A stretch of DNA of 64,000 nucleotides from an uncultured Verrucomicrobiae bacterium (lineage in GTDB: Bacteria > Verrucomicrobiota > Verrucomicrobiia > Limisphaerales > Palsa-1400): the NCBI GenBank assembly GCA_963707025.1, contig CAVPOM010000018.1, positions 192,001 through 256,000 on the forward strand, written 5' to 3'. The notes under the pieces were generated by a model that had not been told where the DNA came from, did no database searches, and saw nothing but the letters and a program-made list of their open reading frames with translations. The position numbers were made by a program, and so were the translations under genes. This document shows, one piece after another, positions 14,581 through 27,745 of the stretch (its first letter is position 1; each line of letters starts with the position of its first letter).

Positions 14581-17500
14581 TCACGGGCGGAGCTGGATGA
14601 GGAGGTCTTTGCTGGCGACGGTTTCGCCGACTTGGGCGAAGAGGGCCTGGACGGCGCCGTCGGAGCTGGCGTAGAGGGTGCTTTGCATTTTCATGGCTTC
14701 CAAGGTGAGGAGTTTGTCGCCTTTTTTCACCTTGCTGCCCACGCTGACGGCCAGGGCGGTGAGGAGGCCGGGAATGGGCGCGCCGATTTGCCAGGGGTCG
14801 GACGGGTCGGCCTTGGGACGGGTCCTGGCCTTGACCTGGGCGGTCTTGTCAAGTATGGAGGCCTCGCGGGTCATGCCGTTGAGTTCGAAGGTGACGATGC
14901 GGCGGCCATCCTTGTCCACCGCGCCCAGGTGGATGAGCTTGATGAAAAGGGTCTTGCCCGCCTCGATGTCCACGGAGATTTCCTCGCCGGGCTTGAGCCC
15001 GTAGAAAAAGGCGCTGGTGGGGAGGACGGCCAGGTCGCTGTAGTCGCGCTCGAATTTGGCGTATTCGGCGAAGACTTCGGGGTACATGAGATGGCTGTAG
15101 AGATCGTCCGGGGTGGCGTCGCGCTTGAGTTTGAGGGTGAGTTGGTCCTGGATTTTTTTGAGGTGGAGCGGCTTGAGCCTGGCGCCGGGACGGCCGCGAA
15201 TGGGTTGGCGGCGGCCGAGGACGACTTTTTGCAGGCGGCGGGGCCAGCCGCCCAGGGGCTGGCCGAGTTGGCCGCCGAGCATGTCAATAACAGAGGCGGG
15301 GAAGGGGACGCTGCCGGGCTCAAGATTGAGAAGGTCGGCGGGATTGATGCCCCGGCTGATGAGGAACATGGCCAGGTCGCCCACGACTTTGCTGCTGGGG
15401 GTGACTTTAACGATGTCGCCCAGAAGCTGGTTGACCTGGGCGTAGGTGCGGGCGATTTCGGGCCAGCGCTGGGCCAGGCCCATGCTGGCGGCTTGTTCTT
15501 TGAGGTTGGTGTATTGGCCGCCGGGCATTTCGTGGTCATAGACTTCGGCGCTGCCGCTGCGCGGGGCGGTGTCGAAGGGGGCGTAAGCCAGGCAAACTTT
15601 TTCCCAGTAATCGGAGAATTCGTTGAGGGCGGCCAGGTCCAGGCCGGTGTCGCGGGGGGTGTGGCGCAAGGCGGCGACCAGGGAGTTGAGGTTGGGCTGG
15701 CTGGTGGAACCGCTCATGGCGGCAATGGCCAGATCCACCACGTCCGCGCCCGCCTCGGCGGCTTTGAGGACGGAAGCGGCATTGACGCCGCTGGTGTCGT
15801 GAGTGTGGAAATGCAGGGGCAGGGCGATTTCCTCCTTGAGCGCCTTGACCAGGGTGTAGGCGGCATAGGGGCGGCACAAACCGGCCATGTCCTTGATGGC
15901 GAGGAAATGAGCGCCCATTTTTTCCAGTTGCCGGGCCAGCTTGACGTAGTATTTGAGGGAGTATTTGGCGCGGCGGGGATCATGGATGTCGCCGGTGTAG
16001 CAGATGGCGGCTTCGCAGATGGCGTGGGTTTGCCGGACCGCCTCGATGGCGACTTGGAGATTGGGGGTGTAGTTGAGGGAATCGAAGATGCGGAAGATAT
16101 CAATGCCGGAAGCCGCGGCATGTTTGACAAAGCCGGCGACGACGTTGTCGGGATAATTGGAATAGCCGACGGCGTTGGCGCCACGGAGCAGCATCTGGAA
16201 ACAGATGTTGGGGATTTTTTGGCGCAAGAGGCGGAGGCGGTCCCACGGGTCTTCGCGGAGGAAGCGCATGGCGGTGTCGAAGGTGGCGCCGCCCCACATT
16301 TCCAGGCTGAAGAGTTGCGGGGTGCGCCGGGCCAGGGCGTCGGCGATGGCGAGCATGTCGTAGGTGCGCAAGCGGGTGGCGAGGAGGGATTGGTGGGCGT
16401 CGCGGAAAGTGGTGTCGGTGACGAGGAGTCTTTTTTGGGCGAGGGTCCAGCGGGCGAAGCGGCGCGGCCCCAGTTGCAGGAGCAGTTGGCGGGTGCCGGG
16501 CGGGGGTGCTTGTTTGCGGTCGTGGGGCGGCGGAGTGACCGCAGGCAAGGGGGCCTGGAGGGACTGTCCCTTGGCCTGGGGGTTGCCGTTGACAATGACA
16601 TCGCCGAGGAAGGCGAGGAGTTTGGTGGCGCGGTCGCGGCGGGAGGCGAAGGCAAAGAGGCCGGGCGAGGTGTCAATCAGGTTGGTGGTGGCGCGACCGG
16701 AGCGGAATTCGGGGTGGGCGATGACGTTTTCGAGGAAGGGAATGTTAGTCTTGACGCCGCGGATGCGAAATTCGCGCAGGGCGCGGTCCATGCGCACCAA
16801 GGCGAGGTCGAAATCGCGCCCGAAGGCGGTGATCTTGACGAGGAGGGAATCGTAAAAGGGGGTGATGACCGCGCCGGCATAGCCCATGCCGCCGTCCAGG
16901 CGCACGCCATAGCCGCCGGTGGAGCGGTAGGTGAGGATCTTGCCGTAGTCAGGGGTGAATTTATTTTCCGGATCCTCGGTGGTGACGCGGCATTGCACGG
17001 CATAGCCGTGGCGGGGAATGTCGCGGCCGGGCGGCAGGTTGATTTCGGGGCTGTGGAGGGAGAGGCCCTGGGCGACGAGGATTTGCGAACGAACCAGGTC
17101 CACCCCGGTGACAACTTCGGTGACGGTGTGCTCGACCTGGATGCGTGGGTTGACTTCGATGAAGAACCATTGGCGGCGGTCGAGGTCATAGAGGAATTCG
17201 ACGGTGCCGGCATTGTCATACTGGACCGCGCGGCCCAGGCGGACGGCGGCCTGGCACAAGTCGCGCCGGACGGAATCGTCCAGGGCGAAGGCGGGGGCGA
17301 TTTCGATGACTTTCTGGTGGCGGCGCTGGACCGAACAATCCCGTTCGTGGAGGTGGACGACGTTGCCGTAGTGGTCGCCGAGAATCTGCACCTCGATGTG
17401 TTTGGCGCGGGGGATGTATTTTTCCAGGAAGACGGCGGGGTTGCCGAAGGCGCGGCCGGCTTCGTCGCGGGCTTCATCGAGGAGGCGGGCGAGGTCGGCG

Positions 17501-18102
17501 GGTTTATGCGCCACTCTCATGCCGCGGCCGCCGCCGCCGAAGGCCGCCTTAATGATGAGTGGAAAGCCGATTTGGCGGGCAATCCGGAGCGCCTGGGCGC
17601 GGCCGGCCACGGCCTGCTCCGTGCCGGGGAGGATGGGAACGTTGAGTTTTTGGGCGAGGGCGCGGGCGGCGGTTTTGTCGCCCATCATGGCCAGGATGTC
17701 CGGGCGCGGGCCGACGAATTGGATGCCGGCCTGGGCGCAAGCGCGGGCGAAGCCGGCGTTTTCGGCGAGGAATCCGTAGCCGGGATGGATGAGGTCCACT
17801 TGCCTTTCCTTGGCCAGGGCGACGATGCCCGGGATGTCGAGGTAAGCGCCGACGGGCCCTTGGTTTTCTCCGATGAGATAGGCTTCATCGGCCTTGAAGC
17901 GGTGGATGCTAAGGCGGTCTTCCTGGGCGTAAATGGCGACGGTGCGCAAACCCAATTCGGTGGCGGCGCGAAAAACGCGGATGGAAATTTCGCTGCGATT
18001 GGCCACAAGCAATTTTTTGAAGGAACGGCGCGGCGGGGGCGCGCCGGCCCCGGCGGCGGGAGCGTCGGACGGTTCTGCGGCATGGAGCGGATGGCTCATC
18101 AT
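14581..18102 (-). CDS. pyc: Pyruvate carboxylase
   Basis: LVANRSEI biotin carboxylase domain, ERDCSVQRRHQK, RDAHQSLLATR, HTHDTSG, EAMKM biotinyl motif; start moved to the MMSHP ATG. Confidence 0.97.
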   Translation of the reverse strand: MMSHPLHAAEPSDAPAAGAGAPPPRRSFKKLLVANRSEISIRVFRAATELGLRTVAIYAQEDRLSIHRFKADEAYLIGENQGPVGAYLDIPGIVALAKERQVDLIHPGYGFLAENAGFARACAQAGIQFVGPRPDILAMMGDKTAARALAQKLNVPILPGTEQAVAGRAQALRIARQIGFPLIIKAAFGGGGRGMRVAHKPADLARLLDEARDEAGRAFGNPAVFLEKYIPRAKHIEVQILGDHYGNVVHLHERDCSVQRRHQKVIEIAPAFALDDSVRRDLCQAAVRLGRAVQYDNAGTVEFLYDLDRRQWFFIEVNPRIQVEHTVTEVVTGVDLVRSQILVAQGLSLHSPEINLPPGRDIPRHGYAVQCRVTTEDPENKFTPDYGKILTYRSTGGYGVRLDGGMGYAGAVITPFYDSLLVKITAFGRDFDLALVRMDRALREFRIRGVKTNIPFLENVIAHPEFRSGRATTNLIDTSPGLFAFASRRDRATKLLAFLGDVIVNGNPQAKGQSLQAPLPAVTPPPHDRKQAPPPGTRQLLLQLGPRRFARWTLAQKRLLVTDTTFRDAHQSLLATRLRTYDMLAIADALARRTPQLFSLEMWGGATFDTAMRFLREDPWDRLRLLRQKIPNICFQMLLRGANAVGYSNYPDNVVAGFVKHAAASGIDIFRIFDSLNYTPNLQVAIEAVRQTHAICEAAICYTGDIHDPRRAKYSLKYYVKLARQLEKMGAHFLAIKDMAGLCRPYAAYTLVKALKEEIALPLHFHTHDTSGVNAASVLKAAEAGADVVDLAIAAMSGSTSQPNLNSLVAALRHTPRDTGLDLAALNEFSDYWEKVCLAYAPFDTAPRSGSAEVYDHEMPGGQYTNLKEQAASMGLAQRWPEIARTYAQVNQLLGDIVKVTPSSKVVGDLAMFLISRGINPADLLNLEPGSVPFPASVIDMLGGQLGQPLGGWPRRLQKVVLGRRQPIRGRPGARLKPLHLKKIQDQLTLKLKRDATPDDLYSHLMYPEVFAEYAKFERDYSDLAVLPTSAFFYGLKPGEEISVDIEAGKTLFIKLIHLGAVDKDGRRIVTFELNGMTREASILDKTAQVKARTRPKADPSDPWQIGAPIPGLLTALAVSVGSKVKKGDKLLTLEAMKMQSTLYASSDGAVQALFAQVGETVASKDLLIQLRP

Positions 18103-18207
18103 TGGGGCGACGGTATAGCGGGCGGCGGCGCGGGTGGAAAGAGCAAAGTGGAAGGGCGGGGCGGTTTTGGGTTGAAAAGGAGGAGGGGGTTGTAGTTTGA
18201 TTCTGTG

Positions 18208-19779
18208 ATGAAATACCGCCTTGCCAAACTTTGGCTGATTCCCTGTTTCGCCGCCGCCGTTTTTTCGGCGGACGGGCAGGACCATGGGGCGATGGTCAAT
18301 GCCCTGCTGCAACTCAAGGCCGATCAACCCGGGTCGGTGATCAACCGCCACCAGTACGGACAGTTTGCCGAACATCTTGGGCACGGCATTTATGGCGGAT
18401 TGTGGGTGGGGGAGAATTCGACCATCCCCAACACGCGCGGCATCCGCAGTGACGTGGTGGCGGCGCTGAAGAAGATGGGCATCCCGGTGCTGCGCTGGCC
18501 GGGGGGCTGTTTCGCCGACGAATATCATTGGCGGGACGGCATCGGCCCGCGGGAGAAGCGGCCCAAAATGATCAACACCACCTGGGGCGGGGTGGTGGAG
18601 GTCAACGCCTTCGGCACCCACGAGTTCATGGATTTGTGCGGGCAATTGGGCTGCGACGCTTATGTCTGCGGCAATGTGGGCAGCGGCACGCCGCAGGAAA
18701 TGATGGAGTGGGTGGAATACATGACCTCGGACACCGACTCGACCATCGCCAATCAGCGCCGGCAAAACGGGCGGGAGAAGGCGTGGAAGCTGGCCTATTT
18801 CGGCGTGGGCAACGAGAACTGGGGCTGCGGCGGGAACATGCGGCCGGAGTATTACGCGGACCTTTTCCGGCGCTACAACACGTTTGTCAAAAATTACGGG
18901 GCCAACAAACCCTACCGCATCGCCAGCGGCGCGGATGGGGGCGACTTGAACTGGACGACGGTGCTGATGAACCAGGCCGGCTCGCAGATGGACGGCCTCT
19001 CGGTGCATAATTACACCCTGCCCTCGGGCAGTTGGACCGGCCCCAAAGGGTCCGCGACCGACTTTGGCGAGGAGGCCTGGATCACCCAGTTATCCAGGAC
19101 GCTGGGGATGGACGGAATTCTTTCCCGGCACTCGGCCATTATGGACCGCACCGACCCGAAGAAACGGGTCGGGCTGATCGTGGATGAATGGGGGTCCTGG
19201 TATGATGTGGAGCCGGGCACCAACCCGGGCTTTCTTTACCAGCAAAACACCCTGCGCGACGCGCTGCTGGCGGCGCTCAATTTCAACATTTTTCACAGGC
19301 ACGCCGACCGCGTGCCCATGGCCAACATCGCGCAGATGGTCAACGTCCTCCAGTCCATGGTATTGACAGACGGCCCGAAGATGACGGTCACGCCCACCTA
19401 CTGGGTTTTTGAAATGTACAAAGTCCACCAGGACGCGACTTATCTGCCCGTGGCGGTGGTGACGCCCGATTACAAGTTTGGCGACCGGACCATCCCGATG
19501 GTGGACGCGACGGCCTCGCGCGACGCCGCGGGCAAGACGCATCTTTCGCTGGTGAATGTGGACCCGCACGCCGCCGTCATGGTCTCGTGCGAATTGCGCG
19601 GCCTGGCGGCCAAATCGGTGTCCGGCCGCATCCTGACGGCGCCGGAAATAAATTCTCACAACACTTTCGATGCGCCCAACGCCGTCGCGCCGCAGCCTTT
19701 CATTGGCGCGTCCCTGGCGGAGGGCAGGCTTTCGGTGAAACTGCCCGCCAAGTCGGTGGTGGTGCTGGAATTGCTTTAA
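18208..19779 (+). CDS. Alpha-L-arabinofuranosidase (GH51), secreted
   Basis: [47 protein letters not shown]. Confidence 0.95.
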
Positions 19780-20106: not shown

Positions 20107-20218
20107 AATTACCAATGACAAGTACTCGATGGCAAATTCTCAATTATAGGACGGGCGCAATACCTTATTGGGTTCTCAGGATTGAAAATTGCCAATTGAA
20201 AATTTGTCATTGGTAATT
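20107..20218. repeat. AT-rich imperfect inverted repeat between convergent genes
   Basis: aattaccaatgacaa...ggcaaattctcaat / attgaaaattgcc...ttgtcattggtaatt. Confidence 0.7.
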
Positions 20219-21348
20219 TATTGACCACAGACCCGGTGGTAAAGGGCCTGGTAGCGCGGGACGATGATGGCGGCGGAAAATAAATCGCGCGCGCGGCTTT
20301 GCGCGGCGAGGCCCAGTTGGCGGCGGCGGGCCGGGTCGCGAATCAATTCTTCCACCGAGGCGGCCATCGCCGCGACGTCGCCAAAGGGGACCAGAATTCC
20401 GCTGACGTTGTGCTCGACCACTTCCGGGATGCCGCCGACGCGGCTGGAGACGCTCGGACAGGCAAAACACATCGCTTCCAAAATGCTGAGGCAAAAGGTT
20501 TCCAGCTCCGAGGTGAAGAGTCCCAGGTCGGCGGCTTGGAGGTAGTCCTCAATGTCGCTGACTTTTTCGCGCACGATCACCCGATCCTGCAAAGCCATCC
20601 GCCGCACTTGTCCCTGGAAAGGGGCAAAGCTGTCTCCGGCCAAAATGAGCAGCTTGAAGGCATCGCGCGGGCGAATGCGCGCGGCGGCCTCCAGCAAGAG
20701 ATCAATGCGCTTGGGCGCGCGCAGGTTGGAGGAATGGAACAGCAACACTTCGCCGCCCAGGCCCAGTTCACGCCGCACCTCGTCGCGCGAACGCCGGGCG
20801 GGGCGCGGCTCAAAAAAATTATGTATGACATCAATGGGCTGCGTCACCCCCAGCACCTCCTGCGTCTCCCGCCGCAGGTAGGCGGACACGGTGGTGATGG
20901 CGTCCGAGCAGGCCAGGGCATGGCGGATGGCCGGGGCATAACCGGGATCGCGCCCCAGCAAGGTGGTGTCCGTGCCGTGCAGGGTGGTCACCAGGCGCGG
21001 CTGTTGCCGGGGCGGCAGCATGTCGCGCGCCAGGATGGCGGCGGTGGCGTGAGGCACGGCGTAATGGACATGGAGCACGTCCAGTTGGTGGTCGCGGCTG
21101 ACCTCGGCCATTTTTACCGAGAGCGGCAAGGTGTAGTCGGGGTATTTGAACAGCCCGTAATCGTTGATCACCACGGGATGGAAAAACAGGCGCGGCGCCT
21201 CCGCCGGGAGGCGGAAGGGGCGTTCGTAGCCGATGAAATGCACTTCCTCGCCGCGCCGGGCCAGTTGCTCGCCCAGCGCCGAGGCCAGAATTCCGCTCCC
21301 GCCGACCGAGGGATAACAGGTGATGCCGATTTTCAGGGGGCGGGCCAC
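20218..21348 (-). CDS. bshA: N-acetyl-alpha-D-glucosaminyl L-malate synthase (GT4)
   Basis: KIGITCYPSVGGSG, HVHYAVPHA, TTLHGTD, HSSNLRAPKR motifs; GTG start just after the bshB1 stop. Confidence 0.9.
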   Translation of the reverse strand: MARPLKIGITCYPSVGGSGILASALGEQLARRGEEVHFIGYERPFRLPAEAPRLFFHPVVINDYGLFKYPDYTLPLSVKMAEVSRDHQLDVLHVHYAVPHATAAILARDMLPPRQQPRLVTTLHGTDTTLLGRDPGYAPAIRHALACSDAITTVSAYLRRETQEVLGVTQPIDVIHNFFEPRPARRSRDEVRRELGLGGEVLLFHSSNLRAPKRIDLLLEAAARIRPRDAFKLLILAGDSFAPFQGQVRRMALQDRVIVREKVSDIEDYLQAADLGLFTSELETFCLSILEAMCFACPSVSSRVGGIPEVVEHNVSGILVPFGDVAAMAASVEELIRDPARRRQLGLAAQSRARDLFSAAIIVPRYQALYHRVCGQ

Positions 21349-21349
21349 G

Positions 21350-22087
21350 TCAAAAGCGCCGGGCGCCGCGGCTGAGTTGCGCAAGCGAGCCGGCGACCAC
21401 GGGATCACTGGGAAACAAGGCAATGGCATGGCCAACCCCGGCCCGCAATCCCTGAAACCGCGCGCGGGCCAGTTGGAGTTCCACGTAGGGCCGGGCGCGA
21501 AGTTGGGAAGCGTGCGCGGCCATCGCCGCCGTCCAAGCCGCGATAATTTCCGGGGCGGAAACGTCCATCAGCACGGGCGTGATATCGGGAGGCTCCGCTT
21601 CGGGAGTGACGGCGTAGAAGAAAAGCTGGTCAACGGCGTGGGGCGTCTGGCGCCGCAATTCCTTCAAGCCCCCGTAGCGGGCCAGCCGCGCGGCGTCGCG
21701 CACCAGGCGTCCGAGCCGCGCGTGATCGGGGTGCTGGTTTTCCACCACGCTGGGCGCGAGCACGATGGCGGGCCGGGCGCGCCGGATCAGGGCCGCAAGC
21801 TGGATGGCGTGGGCGGCGCGCATTTCCAGGCGCGCATCGCCGTCCAGCGTGATGAATTGAAGAGTGGCGCCGAGGAGGGCGGCGGCTCTTTTCGCCTCGG
21901 CCGCGCGTTGCGCGGGCGTGCCGCAGGTGCCGGCTTCGCCGCGGGAACAGATGACAAAATGCGCGGGCCGGCCGGCGCGGGTCTCGCAGGCGACGACGGC
22001 TCCGCAGGCAAATTCGATGTCGTCGGGATGCGCGCCAAAGGCCAGGAGCGGCGCGGGTTCAGGAGGGGATTTCAGTGTAGGCTTCAT
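21350..22087 (-). CDS. bshB1: PIG-L family deacetylase, BshB1-like
   Basis: FGAHPDDIE, SRGEAGT.GT...R..E, HPDH, HASQ; adjacent to bshA. Confidence 0.8.
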   Translation of the reverse strand: MKPTLKSPPEPAPLLAFGAHPDDIEFACGAVVACETRAGRPAHFVICSRGEAGTCGTPAQRAAEAKRAAALLGATLQFITLDGDARLEMRAAHAIQLAALIRRARPAIVLAPSVVENQHPDHARLGRLVRDAARLARYGGLKELRRQTPHAVDQLFFYAVTPEAEPPDITPVLMDVSAPEIIAAWTAAMAAHASQLRARPYVELQLARARFQGLRAGVGHAIALFPSDPVVAGSLAQLSRGARRF

Positions 22088-22835
22088 CGGAGCGGTCAAT
22101 GGGATCGCGTTTGACAAAAGTTATTTCCGGCGCATCGGCGGGGCAAAGATACGCCTGTTCGCCCAGGCCGGCAATGTAATGCGTGCAGTGGATGACCGAT
22201 TGCATCCAGCGCAGCCGGGAGTCGCGCGCCGGGCTGATCTGTTCCTTGCCGAAATCGGTCCGGGGCAGGGTAATGAAGGAATTCCCGCCCTGGTGCAGGG
22301 TCAGGGCGCCGTTGACGCAGCGGGCGCGCACCAGTTCGCCCGCGTAGGGCACGTCCACAAAGAATTCCGCCACGTCGCAGGCGGCGCGCCGGAAGGCCGG
22401 ATCGCCCGAGCGCGCCACGCGCACGCCCGCCAGCAGGCCCATGAGCCGGTACATCTCCAGGCAAAAATCGGCGGGGTTGGCGGCGTCCGTATTCGCGAAG
22501 GCCTCCACCCAGCGCGGGTCCACGAAGGGCGGCAGTTGCAGGGCGGTCCGGTCGCGCCAGCCGGCGGCGATGCGCTTGGCGAAAAGAGGCGAAAACTTGC
22601 GCTGCCACTTGTTTTCGCAGGCGAAATTGAGGCGCAAGGCTTCGCCGGTTTTGCGATGGCGCAGGATGGTGGCGGTCTCGCGCGGGTCGTGGTCGCTGTC
22701 GTGATAAAAGAAAACGATCTCCCCGCCCATTTCCGCCTGGAGCCGCCGGGCGGTCTGGATTTTGGCAAAAAGGAAGCGGCGCGGAAAGAATCCGCAGGGC
22801 TGCTGGCCAAAACAAATAATGGGCGATGTCGTCAT
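22059..22835 (-). CDS. Short BshC-like protein (putative cysteine-adding enzyme, minimal form)
   Basis: GQQP...AK..TA..L....VFF..DSDHD..E and YIAGLGEQAY match the BshC GQQ/K/DHD and Y.GGPGE..Y motifs; lies directly upstream of bshB1-bshA. Confidence 0.6.
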   Translation of the reverse strand: MTTSPIICFGQQPCGFFPRRFLFAKIQTARRLQAEMGGEIVFFYHDSDHDPRETATILRHRKTGEALRLNFACENKWQRKFSPLFAKRIAAGWRDRTALQLPPFVDPRWVEAFANTDAANPADFCLEMYRLMGLLAGVRVARSGDPAFRRAACDVAEFFVDVPYAGELVRARCVNGALTLHQGGNSFITLPRTDFGKEQISPARDSRLRWMQSVIHCTHYIAGLGEQAYLCPADAPEITFVKRDPIDRSDEAYTEIPS

Positions 22836-24550
22836 GGAGCGGGGCGCGCCTCTTCCTTTTTAGCATGCACGGCCTGAATCGCCAGACTGAACAGGACGCA
22901 GGCGGCGCAGCCGATGAGGTTGTACCAGAGATAACTGATTTCTTGAGGGGTATTCTTGAGATGGAAATAGAAGTATAACACCAGCCCTTCCGCCAGCACC
23001 GCCCCCCAAAAAACGGCCGTCCCATGCACCCATTTGACGAAAAAGGCGACGAGAAACAATCCCAGGACCACGCCGTAAAAGACGGAACCGACGATGTTGA
23101 CGGCCTGGATCAGGTTCTCCGCCAGGTGGGCATAGAGGGCGAAGCCCAGGGCCACCAATCCCCACATGGCCGTGAACCATCTTGAGGCCTTGACGTAATG
23201 CGCGTCGCCCGCCTCGCGTTTGAGGAGGTGCCGGTAAAAATCCACCGAGGTCGTCGAGCCCAGCGCGCTCAATTCCGCCGCCTTGGAGGACAGGGCCGCG
23301 GCAAAAAAGGCCGCGACCAGCAAACCAATCACGCCATGCGGCAGATGGGCCAGGATGAAAGTGATGAACACGTAGTCGCCATCGTTGGTTTGGGCGTGGA
23401 CATCGGCCTGGCGCAGCGCGGCCCGGGCTTCGGCGCGGATGGCTTCGCTTTGGTCGTGCGCGGCCAGGGCCTGGGCGCGGGCGGCGGTGGCGGCGGAGAG
23501 GTCGTGGCGGTGACGGGCCTCGAGCCAGGCGCGGAGGGATTGCTCCTTTTGCAAATAAACGGCCGCAAATTTTTGCTCGACAGCGTGAAATTTTGCGCCG
23601 TCATGCGCGGCCGCGGCCTGCCAGGAGGATTGGTTGAAAAAAACGGGCGGCGGCTCGAATTGGTAGAAGACAAACATGAGGACCCCCAGCCACAGGATGA
23701 GGAACTGCATGGGGATTTTGCAAACGGCGTTAAACATCAGGCCCAGCTTGCATTCCCGGGTGGAGGCTCCTGAGATATAACGCTGCACCTGGGATTGGTC
23801 GGTCCCGAAGTAAGAGAGCATGAGGCACATTCCCCCGAACATGCCGGACCAGAAGGTGTAGCGGCGGTGCAGATCGGGTGAAAAATCAACGGCGTTCATT
23901 TTATGGAACGTCCCCGCCAGGGACAACGTGTCGGTGCAGGTGAGCTGGGCGGGCAGCCGCGCCAGCAGAATGACCAAGGCCGTCACCATGCCGCCGAAGA
24001 TGACCATAATCTGGTATTTCTGCGTCACGCTGACCGCTTCATTGCCGCCGATGACGGTGTAAAGGATGACGAGCAGTCCGCTGAAGATGATGGTCAGGCC
24101 CAGGGGCCAGCCGAAGACGGTGGAAAGCACGATGGCCGGGGCGTAAATGGTGATGCCGGCGCCCAAGCCGCGTTGCAGGAGAAACAGCCCCGCGCCGAGC
24201 AGGCGGGTTTTGGCATCGAAGCGCCGGCCGAGAAACTCGTAGGCGGTGTAAACGTTCAAGCGGCGGAACATGGGGAGGAAAAACGCCGCCACGACGATCA
24301 AGGCCAGGGGCATGGCAAAATAATTCTGCACAAAAGTCAGGCCGTCCTCATAGCCCTGCCCCGGCACGGAGAGGAAGGTGATGGCGCTGGCCTGGGTGGC
24401 CATGACGGAAAGCCCGATGGTGACCCAGCCGGTGGTGCCGCTGCCTTTGAGGTAGCCGCTCAAGCCGCGCTGGCCGCGCGTCCGCCAGACACCGTAGGCG
24501 GCGATCCCGAGCATCGTGACGAACAGAACCAGGTAATCCAGCGGGTTCAT
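22832..24550 (-). CDS. Sodium:solute symporter (SSS) family protein
   Basis: LSVMATQASAITFLS.PG, TAYEFL..RF, SYFGTDQSQVQRY, multiple TM helices. Confidence 0.93.
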   Translation of the reverse strand: MNPLDYLVLFVTMLGIAAYGVWRTRGQRGLSGYLKGSGTTGWVTIGLSVMATQASAITFLSVPGQGYEDGLTFVQNYFAMPLALIVVAAFFLPMFRRLNVYTAYEFLGRRFDAKTRLLGAGLFLLQRGLGAGITIYAPAIVLSTVFGWPLGLTIIFSGLLVILYTVIGGNEAVSVTQKYQIMVIFGGMVTALVILLARLPAQLTCTDTLSLAGTFHKMNAVDFSPDLHRRYTFWSGMFGGMCLMLSYFGTDQSQVQRYISGASTRECKLGLMFNAVCKIPMQFLILWLGVLMFVFYQFEPPPVFFNQSSWQAAAAHDGAKFHAVEQKFAAVYLQKEQSLRAWLEARHRHDLSAATAARAQALAAHDQSEAIRAEARAALRQADVHAQTNDGDYVFITFILAHLPHGVIGLLVAAFFAAALSSKAAELSALGSTTSVDFYRHLLKREAGDAHYVKASRWFTAMWGLVALGFALYAHLAENLIQAVNIVGSVFYGVVLGLFLVAFFVKWVHGTAVFWGAVLAEGLVLYFYFHLKNTPQEISYLWYNLIGCAACVLFSLAIQAVHAKKEEARPAP

Positions 24551-24717
24551 GAGTAAACCCGGGTCAACACCGCCAGGAAAACCACCCAGGCGGCAAAGGC
24601 GGCCACCACAAAAAAGTAAACCGCCCGCCAGGTGCGGAAGCCGGGCAGGCCGGTGCCCTTTTCGTCAATACTAGATTCAGGCGCGCCCGGCGGGGCTGGA
24701 GTTCCCGGCGACTTCAT
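24547..24717 (-). CDS. Small single-TM membrane protein (56 aa), probable SSS transporter partner; absent from the ORF track
   Basis: MKSPGTPAPPGAPESSIDEKGTGLPGFRTWRAVYFFVVAAFAAWVVFLAVLTRVYS*; ATGA overlaps at both ends. Confidence 0.8.
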   Translation of the reverse strand: MKSPGTPAPPGAPESSIDEKGTGLPGFRTWRAVYFFVVAAFAAWVVFLAVLTRVYS

Positions 24718-27239
24718 TTTCCAAGCGAGACCAGATTGGCAAACAGCCGGTAGGCTCCCGGCACGCCGTCGGGCAATTGCCGGAACCAGGAGAGAGCGGT
24801 ATAGGTGAAATAACCCCTGCCGTATTGCGCCACGAGCAGGCTGCCCTTGAGCGGCGCCTCGCCAGGGTCATGGCAGGCGAGCAACGGGGTGAAATGCTCA
24901 TCCCACTGGCTGGCAAAGTAAGCGCCGCGCTCCTGCACCCAGCCGTCGAAATCCGCCGGGACAATTTTGTTGGGCGTGTTGAAAACCGGATGATCGGGCG
25001 CCAGCAGCGTCATCTCGGCCGTCTCGTCCGTCACCCGTTCCCCGGAGACGGCAAGGCTGTAAGGGGCAAGCTGCATCACGCTCGGCCCTCTCTGGCTCGG
25101 ACGGTTGTAAAGAACAATGACATTGCCGCCGTTGGTCGCGAAATCGAACAACCCGGTCAAATGCGGCGCGAGGTCGGTGCGGACGTTGAAGGCGCGAATG
25201 CCCGCCACCACCGCATCCAGACCCTGTAGTTTCTCCGGCGTCAAATCCGCGCCGGTCAGCGGTGTCACCGCGCAGCCCATCCGCGCCAGCGCCTCGGCCA
25301 CCTCGTCGCCCGCGCCGGGAATGTAACCGACTTTGCGGGCGCGCATGGCCATTTCGAGGCTCAAGGCTTTGAGACGCGCGGGCGGCTGGAGCAACTGGGG
25401 CGGGATATGCTCGTAGTGTTCTTTAAGCTCCACCCGGCCAGTGTGCCAGGTCGCGCCACCCACATTCGCAACCGCCAGAAACTCCCCCGTGCCGGTCTGG
25501 GTCGGCGCGGTGATGGTGAAGGTAAAGCGCGCGCTCCCGCCTGAATTGCCCAGGGAAAAAGGTTGGGCTGCCGGCGTCACCTTCCAACCCGCCGGCGCCT
25601 CCAGTCGCAGCGTGCCCCTGGCATGGTCCCGCGCCGCCGTGACTTCCACCTCCGCGTCCCGCGCCGCGCCCGGCGGAAAAAGTCCTACATCGTCCACAAA
25701 TTTCAGCGACACCGGCGGGATGACCCGCAATGGAAGATGGCTCTCTCTTTGCACCGGCTCGTCGGTCACGGAGAATTCTTCGCCGTTCACCGCAAAGACC
25801 TGTTCAATGGGAAAAACGGGGGGGTTCTCCGGCCGGCCGATCAGCGAAACGTCGTCCACCCGGAAACGCCCGGCGGTGCCCTCTTCGCGCAACCAGTAAG
25901 GCTGGGTAATCGGCGTGTTGGTTGGGAGGACGCTGTTCAACTCGTGCATAATGAACCCGCCGGACTCCAAATTCTTCGGCCCAGGTCCGATTATTTCCTT
26001 GGTCCTGCCAGGATAGCGCACTCCGAGCCAGCGCACCGGCACGTCGCTGCGCAGGGTCACCTTAGTGCGCTGTGGCAGCGTTTCGCCCGGCACCACTTCG
26101 GCCTGCGCGATAGTCGTTTCCACCTCAAGCCCAAGGCACTCCTGCAAAATGTGATCCAATTGATGGCGCTTTTCATCCAGCACGATGTCCGCAGGCAGGC
26201 CGGCCAGAAGGTGATGGATTTTAATCAGGGCGGGCACGCTCGCCGCCGGGTGCGCCGGGTCGAAGTGCGCGATCACTTCATCGGTCATCGCCCCGATCTC
26301 CTTGCCGCCCGGGACGCGGCCCCAGGTTGTGTCCACCCCGTCAAATATATCGTTGGTCGCCGGTTCCCCGGCCAGGAAGGTAAAACCGGCGCTGCCCGCG
26401 CCCCCGCGCCCGCCCCTGCCGAAATTGCCAAGGCCCTGCGTTTTGTGCATGGAACGGCTGCGGCCGGCGATGACCCCGAATTCCGCGGGCACCTCCATCG
26501 TCAGCGAGCGTCCGCGGTTTTGGAGAAGCCGTTTGGGCTGCCAGGGTTTTAATTCGCCCAGTTGTTCGGGAAAAGCCTTGGGGTCGCCCGCCAGTTTGAA
26601 GGCTTCGCCCGCCAGTATGGCTGAGGCGGTGTGATGCCCGTGCTGGCCGCCGCCGCCATTGGTGGAAAAGTTGGCGACGACCACGTCCGGCCGGAAGGTG
26701 CGCATGACCCGCACAACGTCGGACAACACTTCTTGCTCGCCCCAGAATTTGAACGTCTCCCGGTAATCCTTGGAAAACCCAAAATCCTTGGCCCGGGTAA
26801 AAAACTGCTGGCCGCCGTCAATGCGCCGCGCCGCCAGCAATTCCTGGGTGCGGATCACGCCCAGCTCGTCCCCGATCTCCGGTCCGAGCACGTTCTGCCC
26901 GCCGTCGCCGCGCGTGACCGAGAGATAAGCGGTGCGACAATAGCGGCCCCTGGCCAGAAAGGCGATCAGGGTCGAGTCTTCGTCGTCCGGATGCGCCGCA
27001 ACCAAGAGCAGGCTTCCCATCTGGCGAAAACTGCGCAGTTCCTGGAGAATGTCCGGAGAAGGATCCGCGCCAGCCAGGGTGAGGAACGGCAAAAGGATGA
27101 AGGCAAAAGGAAGAAGTCCGCCCAGAAAAAGAGGCCCGCGGCGGCGGGCCTGTAAGGCGCGCGCCGCCCCGCGGAACCGGGGCGCAGGGCTTGGGCAGAG
27201 GAGAGGCAACGGCATCATCACGGCATCAGGTGCATTCAC
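24714..27239 (-). CDS. Large secreted PIG-L/LmbE family deacetylase with NEW3-like Ig domain and C-terminal glutamine-amidotransferase-like domain
   Basis: AAHPDDED, TRGDGGQN, DFGFSK, HGHH; C-terminal GWVQERG.YF and FRQLP.GVPGAYRLFANL; start codon uncertain. Confidence 0.88.
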   Translation of the reverse strand: MNAPDAVMMPLPLLCPSPAPRFRGAARALQARRRGPLFLGGLLPFAFILLPFLTLAGADPSPDILQELRSFRQMGSLLLVAAHPDDEDSTLIAFLARGRYCRTAYLSVTRGDGGQNVLGPEIGDELGVIRTQELLAARRIDGGQQFFTRAKDFGFSKDYRETFKFWGEQEVLSDVVRVMRTFRPDVVVANFSTNGGGGQHGHHTASAILAGEAFKLAGDPKAFPEQLGELKPWQPKRLLQNRGRSLTMEVPAEFGVIAGRSRSMHKTQGLGNFGRGGRGGAGSAGFTFLAGEPATNDIFDGVDTTWGRVPGGKEIGAMTDEVIAHFDPAHPAASVPALIKIHHLLAGLPADIVLDEKRHQLDHILQECLGLEVETTIAQAEVVPGETLPQRTKVTLRSDVPVRWLGVRYPGRTKEIIGPGPKNLESGGFIMHELNSVLPTNTPITQPYWLREEGTAGRFRVDDVSLIGRPENPPVFPIEQVFAVNGEEFSVTDEPVQRESHLPLRVIPPVSLKFVDDVGLFPPGAARDAEVEVTAARDHARGTLRLEAPAGWKVTPAAQPFSLGNSGGSARFTFTITAPTQTGTGEFLAVANVGGATWHTGRVELKEHYEHIPPQLLQPPARLKALSLEMAMRARKVGYIPGAGDEVAEALARMGCAVTPLTGADLTPEKLQGLDAVVAGIRAFNVRTDLAPHLTGLFDFATNGGNVIVLYNRPSQRGPSVMQLAPYSLAVSGERVTDETAEMTLLAPDHPVFNTPNKIVPADFDGWVQERGAYFASQWDEHFTPLLACHDPGEAPLKGSLLVAQYGRGYFTYTALSWFRQLPDGVPGAYRLFANLVSLGK

Positions 27240-27284: not shown

Positions 27285-27394
27285 TTCGTGCCATTGGCAA
27301 TCAATTTCAAAAGCGAGAACGGACACTGGCACGCTGACCCTGGCAGGGCAAGATCTGCCGTTTGACTTTTTCCGGGAGAGTCGGATGTTATGCC

Positions 27395-27745
27395 ATGAAA
27401 ACTAAACTATTGAGATTGGTTTTGTTGGCCTCCTTGGCGGGGCTGTTCGCGGCGGGATGCACTGTGTATGTCAGGCCGCCGGCGGCCCAAGTGGCTGTCA
27501 GTGCGCCAGGCGAGGTGGTGGTGGAGGGAGCTCCGCCGCCCGCCCCTCCCTACGTGGATGTGGTGACGCTCAGTCCAGGCCCGGATTTCATCTGGATTGG
27601 CGGAGCTTGGTTCTGGGGAGGCGGTCGTTGGCAGTGGGAACGAGGTCACTGGGCCCGTCCGCCGCATCGCGGCGCGGTTTGGGTGGCTCACCATTACGAG
27701 TATCGCAACGGACGGCATGTATTTGTCCGGGGTGGATGGAGATAA
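27395..27745 (+). CDS. YXWGXW-repeat lipoprotein
   Basis: Lipobox AAGC; PGPDFIWIGGAWFW, WERGHW, WVAHHY, FVRGGWR repeats. Confidence 0.88.
   Translation: MKTKLLRLVLLASLAGLFAAGCTVYVRPPAAQVAVSAPGEVVVEGAPPPAPPYVDVVTLSPGPDFIWIGGAWFWGGGRWQWERGHWARPPHRGAVWVAHHYEYRNGRHVFVRGGWR

Follow-up and report, generated by a model that had tools for sequence, protein, structure and literature searches.

The closest described system to the locus reported here is the bacillithiol pathway of Bacillota, Bacteroidota, Chlorobiota, Deinococcota and others. In the available text of PMC5790435, BshA is described as making N-acetylglucosaminyl-malate (GlcNAc-malate) and BshB as deacetylating it. Loss of BshC leaves cells without bacillithiol and with accumulated glucosaminyl-malate, according to the same text and the available part of PMC4360819. 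The BshC reaction was given there in 2018 as unreconstituted and assumed to need activated cysteine, and BshC was reported to dimerize through its coiled coil (available text of PMC5790435). In the literature searched, in which most subscription journals were not covered, we found no later solution of the BshC reaction and no mention of a short BshC in titles or abstracts. Here we describe a short relative of BshC, 258 amino acids (aa) long, that is encoded beside bshB-like and bshA genes in a 64,000-nucleotide stretch of DNA from an uncultured Verrucomicrobiae bacterium (GenBank assembly GCA_963707025.1, contig CAVPOM010000018.1, positions 192,001 to 256,000; hereafter the window).

For Verrucomicrobia, the available text of PMC6282198 gives no documented or predicted low-molecular-weight thiol, and the available part of the supplement of PMC12719100 lists Verrucomicrobiota among the phyla without a complete pathway in a 2025 survey. 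The short protein would escape both surveys because both, in the parts available, demanded matches of query-like length. BshA and BshC homologues are placed mainly in Asgard archaea in the available text of PMC7278568. In that of PMC5372718, the only links drawn between tRNA(Cys) and bacillithiol are gene clustering and the cysteine pool.

The locus resembles the described pathway in that a BshA above its model cut-off, a BshB1-like deacetylase and a protein with the BshC fold are encoded in one overlapping gene run. It differs in its BshB, which scores below cut-off and carries a Gln at the Arg109 position, in the lack of YpdA, BrxA/B and BrxC over cut-off in five carrier genomes, and in the joining of a symporter, a probably exported PIG-L hydrolase and DUF2911 genes. 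Compared with canonical BshC (B. subtilis YllA; 4wbd; PF10079 and PF24850; TIGR03998), the short protein shares the core over 240 residues and 10 to 11 of 19 invariant columns, takes the same position in the bshC-bshB-bshA order, and is complementary to it in presence across genomes. However, identity is only ~15%, and ~80 N-terminal residues, ~38 internal residues, the coiled coil and the Q-E-R motif of BshC are missing.

Fold and profile match to BshC

Searched by sequence, the 258-aa protein matched nothing in Pfam or PDB and nothing relevant in NCBIfam, and a PDB search with a 56-row profile of the short family missed BshC and returned four chance matches only (E 0.52 to 0.63). A language-model search, used as a lead only, placed two unnamed clusters at the top, followed by PF10079 Rossmann-like_BshC clusters at 0.91. 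We then compared folds. An AlphaFold2 model was built from the 56-row alignment and reached a predicted local distance difference test score (pLDDT) of 95.4 and a predicted template modelling score (pTM) of 0.92. The top Foldseek match of this predicted model was B. subtilis BshC (4wbd) with an E of 2.9e-9. Among 48,161 representative chains, 4wbd again came first (Z 20.2, root-mean-square deviation 2.7, 240 aligned residues, 15% identity), followed by class I lysyl-tRNA synthetase (LysRS-I; 1irx) with Z 14.6, a deviation of 3.0 and 210 aligned residues, and all remaining chains had a Z below 10. The predicted model appears to contain the BshC-type Rossmann core with its insertions.

The profile comparison agreed with the fold comparison. 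A canonical profile was made from 88 full-length BshC sequences, 87 of them from 120 listed and one from locus L081, and hhalign matched it to the short-family profile over 222 columns with a probability of 96.6% and a pairwise E of 6.4e-10. The reversed alignment gave 0.22%, and all eight column shuffles gave between 0.10% and 1.74%. The resemblance to BshC exceeds chance. The kinship that the initial annotation had proposed from motifs was thus upheld by both fold and profile, and fold, core residues and genomic role support the protein as a compact BshC relative. Judged by score and by coiled coil, it falls outside formal membership of BshC.

Core residues

Three motifs named in the initial annotation were checked on the translated sequence. 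VFFYHDSDHD..E (residues 41-53) and YIAGLGEQAY (220-229) read as given there, and the GQQP motif is followed by its Lys after a spacer of 11 residues, not 9. The GQQ/K pattern of BshC is kept, but the EDHD pattern reads SDHD here. G10, Q11, Q12 and K25 pair with invariant BshC columns, and D48, H49, D50 and E53 pair with the D-H-D-x-x-E of BshC, with S47 in place of the usual Glu. In the profile alignment, 10 of the 19 invariant canonical columns are identical (G10, Q11, Q12, K25, D48, E53, R207, G223, E226 and Y229). By fold register R243 is an eleventh, assuming that the deposited sequence of 4wbd is two positions ahead of the residue numbering; within the tail, the fold comparison gives ranges and not residue pairs.

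Several changes are shared by the short family. Ser at position 47 was found in 55/56 short-family sequences, and Glu in 77/88 canonical ones. The short family has PRRF versus canonical GPLY and Phe versus an invariant Trp, and carries no Q-E-R. The conserved serines S47, S143, S201 and S213 would be candidates for a covalent serine intermediate if the enzyme used aminoacyl-tRNA.

Segments missing from the short protein

The short protein has 258 residues against a median of 541 for canonical BshC. The predicted model begins at BshC residue 81, and the first ~80 BshC residues are without counterpart; the profile alignment shows a further gap of ~38 residues after position 156 of the short protein. 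Residues 1-242 folded alone map to residues 81-376 of 4wbd (Z 17.6, 226 aligned), and the full 1-258 model maps to 81-521 with 240 aligned, the comparison placing the 14 extra pairs by range only. Therefore 16 residues occupy the place of ~145 in BshC and end beyond the coiled coil. The coiled-coil family PF24850 had no match in the 258-aa protein. It was also found in none of five carrier genomes, four of which are single-contig and 98-100% complete, and was detected in three control genomes. The initial annotation had called the protein a minimal BshC lacking the coiled coil; the coiled coil is indeed missing, but so are N-terminal and internal residues, and the word minimal does not show an origin by truncation.

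The probable bshB start lies inside the D-E-A codons of the tail (window positions 22059-22087). Because of this, conservation of the tail may partly reflect the gene overlap.

The gene and its relatives

The 258-aa open reading frame (ORF) lies on the minus strand directly upstream of the bshB1-like and bshA genes, as first annotated, and it is a real gene. Its GC content by codon position (0.64/0.49/0.80) is comparable to that of neighbour genes. The stop codon of the symporter gene shares bases with its ATG, the probable ATG start of bshB at 22087 falls inside its last codons, and the probable GTG start of bshA at 21348 is one base beyond the bshB stop.

Relatives were numerous. At E ≤ 0.001, 6689 of 7487 candidate proteins (141-452 aa) were related to the 258-aa protein, and the best 120 were mostly 253-261 aa long and unnamed or "hypothetical". 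The short protein was matched by 243 representatives of 50%-identity clusters, many of which are fragments. A pattern search of the genome collection gave at least 575 confirmed relatives of at least 599 matches listed; the three closest genome loci among the matches listed were 87-93% identical and came from records titled Verrucomicrobiota. Across 80 genome loci the gene was intact and 67-93% identical, and the core residues of the family were kept down to ~40% identity. The search of 72,556 plasmids gave zero matches to the short protein, and none of 115 viral pattern matches was confirmed.

In one 257-aa relative of ~31% identity (P0188), GQQP is lost and the DHD motif partly so, but the central and C-terminal blocks are kept. 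A search for longer forms gave 11 matches among 8000 scored candidates, joined to symporter, BshB or BshA neighbours and in several cases spanning only part of the query. We claim no true fusion, because the one long open frame examined (L113) held separate genes. No canonical BshC came up in this search.

Linkage to bshA and distribution across genomes

We examined 80 genome loci, of which 67 had at least 2.2 kb of downstream flank. In these 67, bshA was present in 65 and bshB in 66. Upstream of the short gene, a symporter match was found in 65/67 (one weak, at 23%) and the long PIG-L gene in 56/59. A further 80 metagenome loci were chosen with three divergent relatives, and bshA was present in 34 of the 35 with enough flank. 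Where these metagenome loci had no adjacent bshB, bshA came directly after the short gene; this arrangement is seen in most loci of a metagenome group of ~54% GC (L120-L167). One further locus (L114:7905-8535, minus strand) has two small genes between the short gene and bshB that, read by eye, resemble a RelE/Phd-type toxin-antitoxin pair.

The proposed neighbourhood link also held at the level of whole genomes, where the same genomes carried both proteins in each of two samples. Among 301 genomes of the phylum, 20 had the short protein and 2 others canonical BshC (PF10079). BshA was over cut-off in 22 of the 301, which are exactly these 20 and these 2, and the two sets are disjoint. In a sample of 151 genomes from the window's order, the short protein and BshA occur in an identical set of 23, and PF10079 was found in none. 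The window's own genome, 88% complete, is present in both samples. Glutathione synthetase was over cut-off in 0/5 carriers tested.

The canonical cluster of genome G070 reads methyltransferase, bshC, bshB1, bshA, with the same C-B-A order as in the window. In each of the two canonical clusters, a methyltransferase of the S-adenosylmethionine-dependent type (L081:738-1496), possibly NmbA, stands ahead of bshC; a tblastn search of the window's genome gave no match to it at E ≤ 1e-5.

Between gatA and gatB, contig L118 (5801-7313) carries a 264-aa relative of 39% identity that converges on a BshB-like gene. The contig is probably archaeal because it encodes Alba, RNase P protein 2, GatB and geranylgeranyl reductase. 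No bshA match was found in the 12.6 kb examined, and no symporter match in the locus. Five records with non-verrucomicrobial titles carry the full cassette; a check for kinship gave none, and we claim no spread to those phyla.

BshA and BshB encoded with the short protein

The BshA gene scored 383.2 bits to TIGR03999 (cut-off 273.7), matched five solved BshA-type chains with E values from 4.9e-88 to 3e-77, and retains stretches seen in solved BshA, namely YPSVGGSG, HYAxPH, HGTD and SNxR..KR. The zinc motifs HPDD and HPDH of the BshB align with those of 2ixd, 6p2t and 1uan, so that the HxDD + H site described in the available text of PMC4101496 is present. Its second motif reads QHPDH, with Gln at the Arg109 position, and the three solved BshB-type chains read RHPDH. 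In 167 loci we found 103 such motifs, of which 99 had Gln, 3 had Arg (from the two canonical-BshC genomes, one counted twice) and 1 had Ala. Arg109 contributes to substrate binding in the BshB of B. cereus/B. anthracis (available text of PMC4101496).

Proposed function

From the fold, the core residues, the missing parts, the gene order and the complementary distribution, we infer the reaction, its substrates and its product. We put the probability at about 0.68 that the short protein joins cysteine to glucosaminyl-malate, giving bacillithiol, and so replaces canonical BshC. BshA would link UDP-GlcNAc to L-malate, the BshB-like enzyme would then remove the acetyl group, and the 258-aa protein would form the amide between cysteine and glucosaminyl-malate. 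Catalysis would need only the BshC core and neither the N-terminal segment nor the coiled coil. The enzyme would transfer a cysteine that is already activated, a proposal to which we commit only weakly.

The possible cysteine donors were considered by comparison with class I synthetases. The short family has a class I synthetase-like core without HIGH or KMSKS, as in cyclodipeptide synthases, and by this analogy a pre-activated donor is favoured. HIGH and KMSKS are absent from the short-family consensus and visible in the LysRS-I sequences, with positions matched by eye. By the same reading, the short family keeps the G-x-x-P-x-G that precedes the HIGH site, has PRRF at the LysRS-I HIGH-type site and has an acidic tail where KMSKS would follow. 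LysRS-I (PF01921), the second fold match, differs from the short protein in having HIGH, KMSKS and an anticodon domain, at 11% identity. The cyclodipeptide synthases AlbC and Rv2275 serve as an analogy only: they are small class I-like domains without HIGH/KMSKS that use aminoacyl-tRNA (available text of PMC3105412), but none was among the 50 listed fold matches, they resemble class Ic TyrRS/TrpRS, and they make cyclic dipeptides. The profile comparison with cysteinyl-tRNA synthetase (CysRS; four sequences) was not significant. MshC, a paralogue of CysRS, uses ATP to activate cysteine. It performs an analogous step on a glucosaminyl acceptor and has the same broad fold class, but its fold match (3c8z) reached only Z 7.8 at rank 28. 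Tentatively, and by analogy, Cys-tRNA would be the single likeliest donor, at less than even odds. A Cys-AMP made by the protein itself through a non-standard ATP site is possible but doubtful, and another activated form or carrier is equally so.

Several results weigh against bacillithiol formation by the short protein. PF10079 and TIGR03998 gave no match to the 258-aa protein at E ≤ 1, and PF10079 was reached by only 2/56 members of the short family (best E 0.11). Eight of the 19 invariant canonical columns differ or are without counterpart; among them are the G-P that follows the first loop, the Trp ahead of the DHD motif (W131 in P0356 numbering) and the P..Q-E-R near the C-terminus. The partner BshB has TIGR04001 (BshB1) as its best NCBIfam model but scores 127.9 bits, below the cut-off of 182.5; the BshB of two relatives were also below it (129.4 and 117.1), against 207.3 for a canonical-cluster BshB. 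Gln replaces Arg109 in 99/100 motif matches from short-BshC loci. An adjacent bshB was found in only 12/35 metagenome loci, and YpdA, BrxA/B and BrxC were over cut-off in 0/5 carriers. Against the tRNA idea, the profile comparison with LysRS-I (three sequences) was not significant at 0.3%, and the higher isoelectric point of the short family (median 7.7 against 5.9) speaks only faintly for it. Finally, the genome counts are not independent tests, because the genomes are related and most of the co-occurrence stems from one cassette that is inherited or transferred as a block.

Alternative explanations

The alternative that best accommodates these differences is a variant product, with a different or modified amino acid, or a hydroxy acid other than malate on the sugar. 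We consider it unlikely, but less so than the explanations that follow. It would fit changes that the whole family shares in a concerted way around the presumed site (S47, PRRF in place of GPLY, Phe in place of Trp, no Q-E-R), the Gln for Arg109 in the partner BshB where both canonical-BshC genomes retain Arg, and the lack of known bacillithiol accessories over cut-off in all five carriers. However, substitutions are expected from divergence alone at ~15-20% identity, and Thermus and Deinococcus were also without BrxA/B in the control panel. BshB2-type enzymes are not known to carry Arg109. BshA, which sets the acceptor, was well over its equivalog cut-off in every carrier listed, and BshB2-type enzymes likewise act on GlcNAc-malate, according to the available text of PMC5790435. 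That text also states that the coiled coil mediates dimerization of canonical BshC and that a partner, as yet unknown, may be needed; the short protein could be a catalytic subunit that needs a separately encoded partner for the coiled coil or the missing lobes; its lack of a sequence counterpart to the C-terminal Q-E-R motif would agree. With PF24850 in 0/5 carriers, no other cytoplasmic gene conserved in the cassette and a predicted model that looks like a complete compact domain, such a partner seems very unlikely.

Translational coupling of the short gene to the symporter, and the presence of the long PIG-L in every carrier (20/20) and in 1/2 canonical-BshC genomes, could instead point to a BshC-fold binding or salvage protein that serves the symporter and the exported hydrolase and is not a biosynthetic ligase. 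This is extremely unlikely: it would leave 20/20 and 23/23 BshA genomes without a third enzyme, and on the archaeal-looking contig a short relative stands beside a BshB-like gene with no symporter match in the locus. If the gene were an artefact or what is left of a broken or truncated bshC, half the canonical length and the missing family match would be explained, but thousands of homologues have a constant length, the gene is intact in 80 genome loci, core residues are kept down to ~40% identity, and an internal deletion with a bridging tail is not a simple cut. Conserved length and sequence rule this explanation out.

A bolder extension, which we regard as quite improbable, would make the short family, rather than a reduced BshC, a separate and possibly older lineage that stands nearer the ancestor of class I synthetases and extends into archaea. 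It would transfer an aminoacyl group from tRNA to a glucosaminyl acceptor and, with the altered BshB, would yield an undescribed thiol of low molecular weight or an amino-acid glycoside that is recycled by the exported hydrolase and symporter and would be the missing redox buffer of part of the Verrucomicrobiota. 

If the preferred explanation, bacillithiol formation by the short protein, is true, bacillithiol or a relative would be made by a sizeable minority of Verrucomicrobiota (20/301 and 23/151 sampled) and would have been missed by annotation, so that a protective thiol is predicted for a phylum in which none came up in published surveys. A natural 258-residue form would mean that the coiled coil is probably dispensable, would narrow the essential residues to ~11 shared positions, and would offer a simpler target for an assay of the unsolved BshC reaction.

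Neighbouring genes and wider cassette

The positions of the short gene, its motifs and the neighbouring genes are collected in Table 1.

Table 1. Features of the short BshC-like gene and its surroundings in the window
Feature	Position	Strand	Basis or remark
Half-size BshC-like protein, 258 aa (P0001)	22059..22835	minus	ORF; AlphaFold2 model; 4wbd fold match; hhalign
GQQP-x11-K, residues 10-25	22761..22808	minus	First Rossmann strand/helix; no HIGH motif
VFFYHDSDHDPRE, residues 41-53 (VFFYHDSDHD..E)	22677..22715	minus	Pairs with BshC D-H-D-x-x-E
YIAGLGEQAY, residues 220-229	22149..22178	minus	G223, E226, Y229 are invariant BshC columns
Short tail replacing coiled coil, residues 243-258	22062..22109	minus	End superposes on BshC residue 521; overlaps bshB start
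BshB1-like zinc deacetylase (PIG-L), 245 aa from probable ATG	21350..22087	minus	PF02585; HPDD + HPDH
BshA, glycosyltransferase family 4 GlcNAc-malate synthase, 376 aa from probable GTG	20218..21348	minus	TIGR03999
Sodium:solute symporter, 572 aa	22832..24550	minus	PF00474, TIGR00813 over cut-off
56-aa ORF, one hydrophobic segment, overlaps both neighbours	24547..24717	minus	Candidate small symporter subunit (putative role)
Long PIG-L hydrolase, at most 841 aa (uncertain start)	24714..27239	minus	PF02585 + weak NPCBM_assoc; N-terminal hydrophobic segment
DUF2911 protein, 305 aa, N-terminal hydrophobic segment	27925..28842	minus	PF11138; recurs in cluster
DUF2911 protein, 179 aa, N-terminal hydrophobic segment	28936..29475	minus	PF11138; recurs in cluster

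The long PIG-L protein is probably exported, judging by its N-terminal segment, and its best NCBIfam model is Mca, below cut-off. It was found in 21/301 phylum genomes, namely 20/20 carriers and 1/2 canonical-BshC genomes, and thus only in BshA-positive genomes of this sample; it is unlinked in G180, G213 and G247. Partial matches were seen in 22 plasmid records, most of them from Alphaproteobacteria, and similar-looking clusters come chiefly from Bacteroidota. This distribution fits a salvage route for thiol conjugates, with the plasmid and Bacteroidota matches counting against exclusivity. As a hypothesis, the symporter, the 56-aa ORF, the long PIG-L and the DUF2911 genes form a candidate salvage module. 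The 56-aa ORF had no NCBIfam match. Clustering of 2109 flanking ORFs gave no further conserved cassette gene of at least 70 aa, and the promoter and terminator scan gave weak consensus matches alone, which were not used.

DUF2911 was mentioned in one paper found. Between the long PIG-L and the DUF2911 genes, an ORF with WXXGXW repeats (27362-27745, plus strand; PF12779 below cut-off) breaks the gene run. The cluster is flanked by a gene for a glycoside hydrolase family 51 alpha-L-arabinofuranosidase (18205-19779, plus strand), which recurs in 1/80 loci, and by a gene at ~14581-18100 (minus strand) that, read by eye, appears to encode pyruvate carboxylase.

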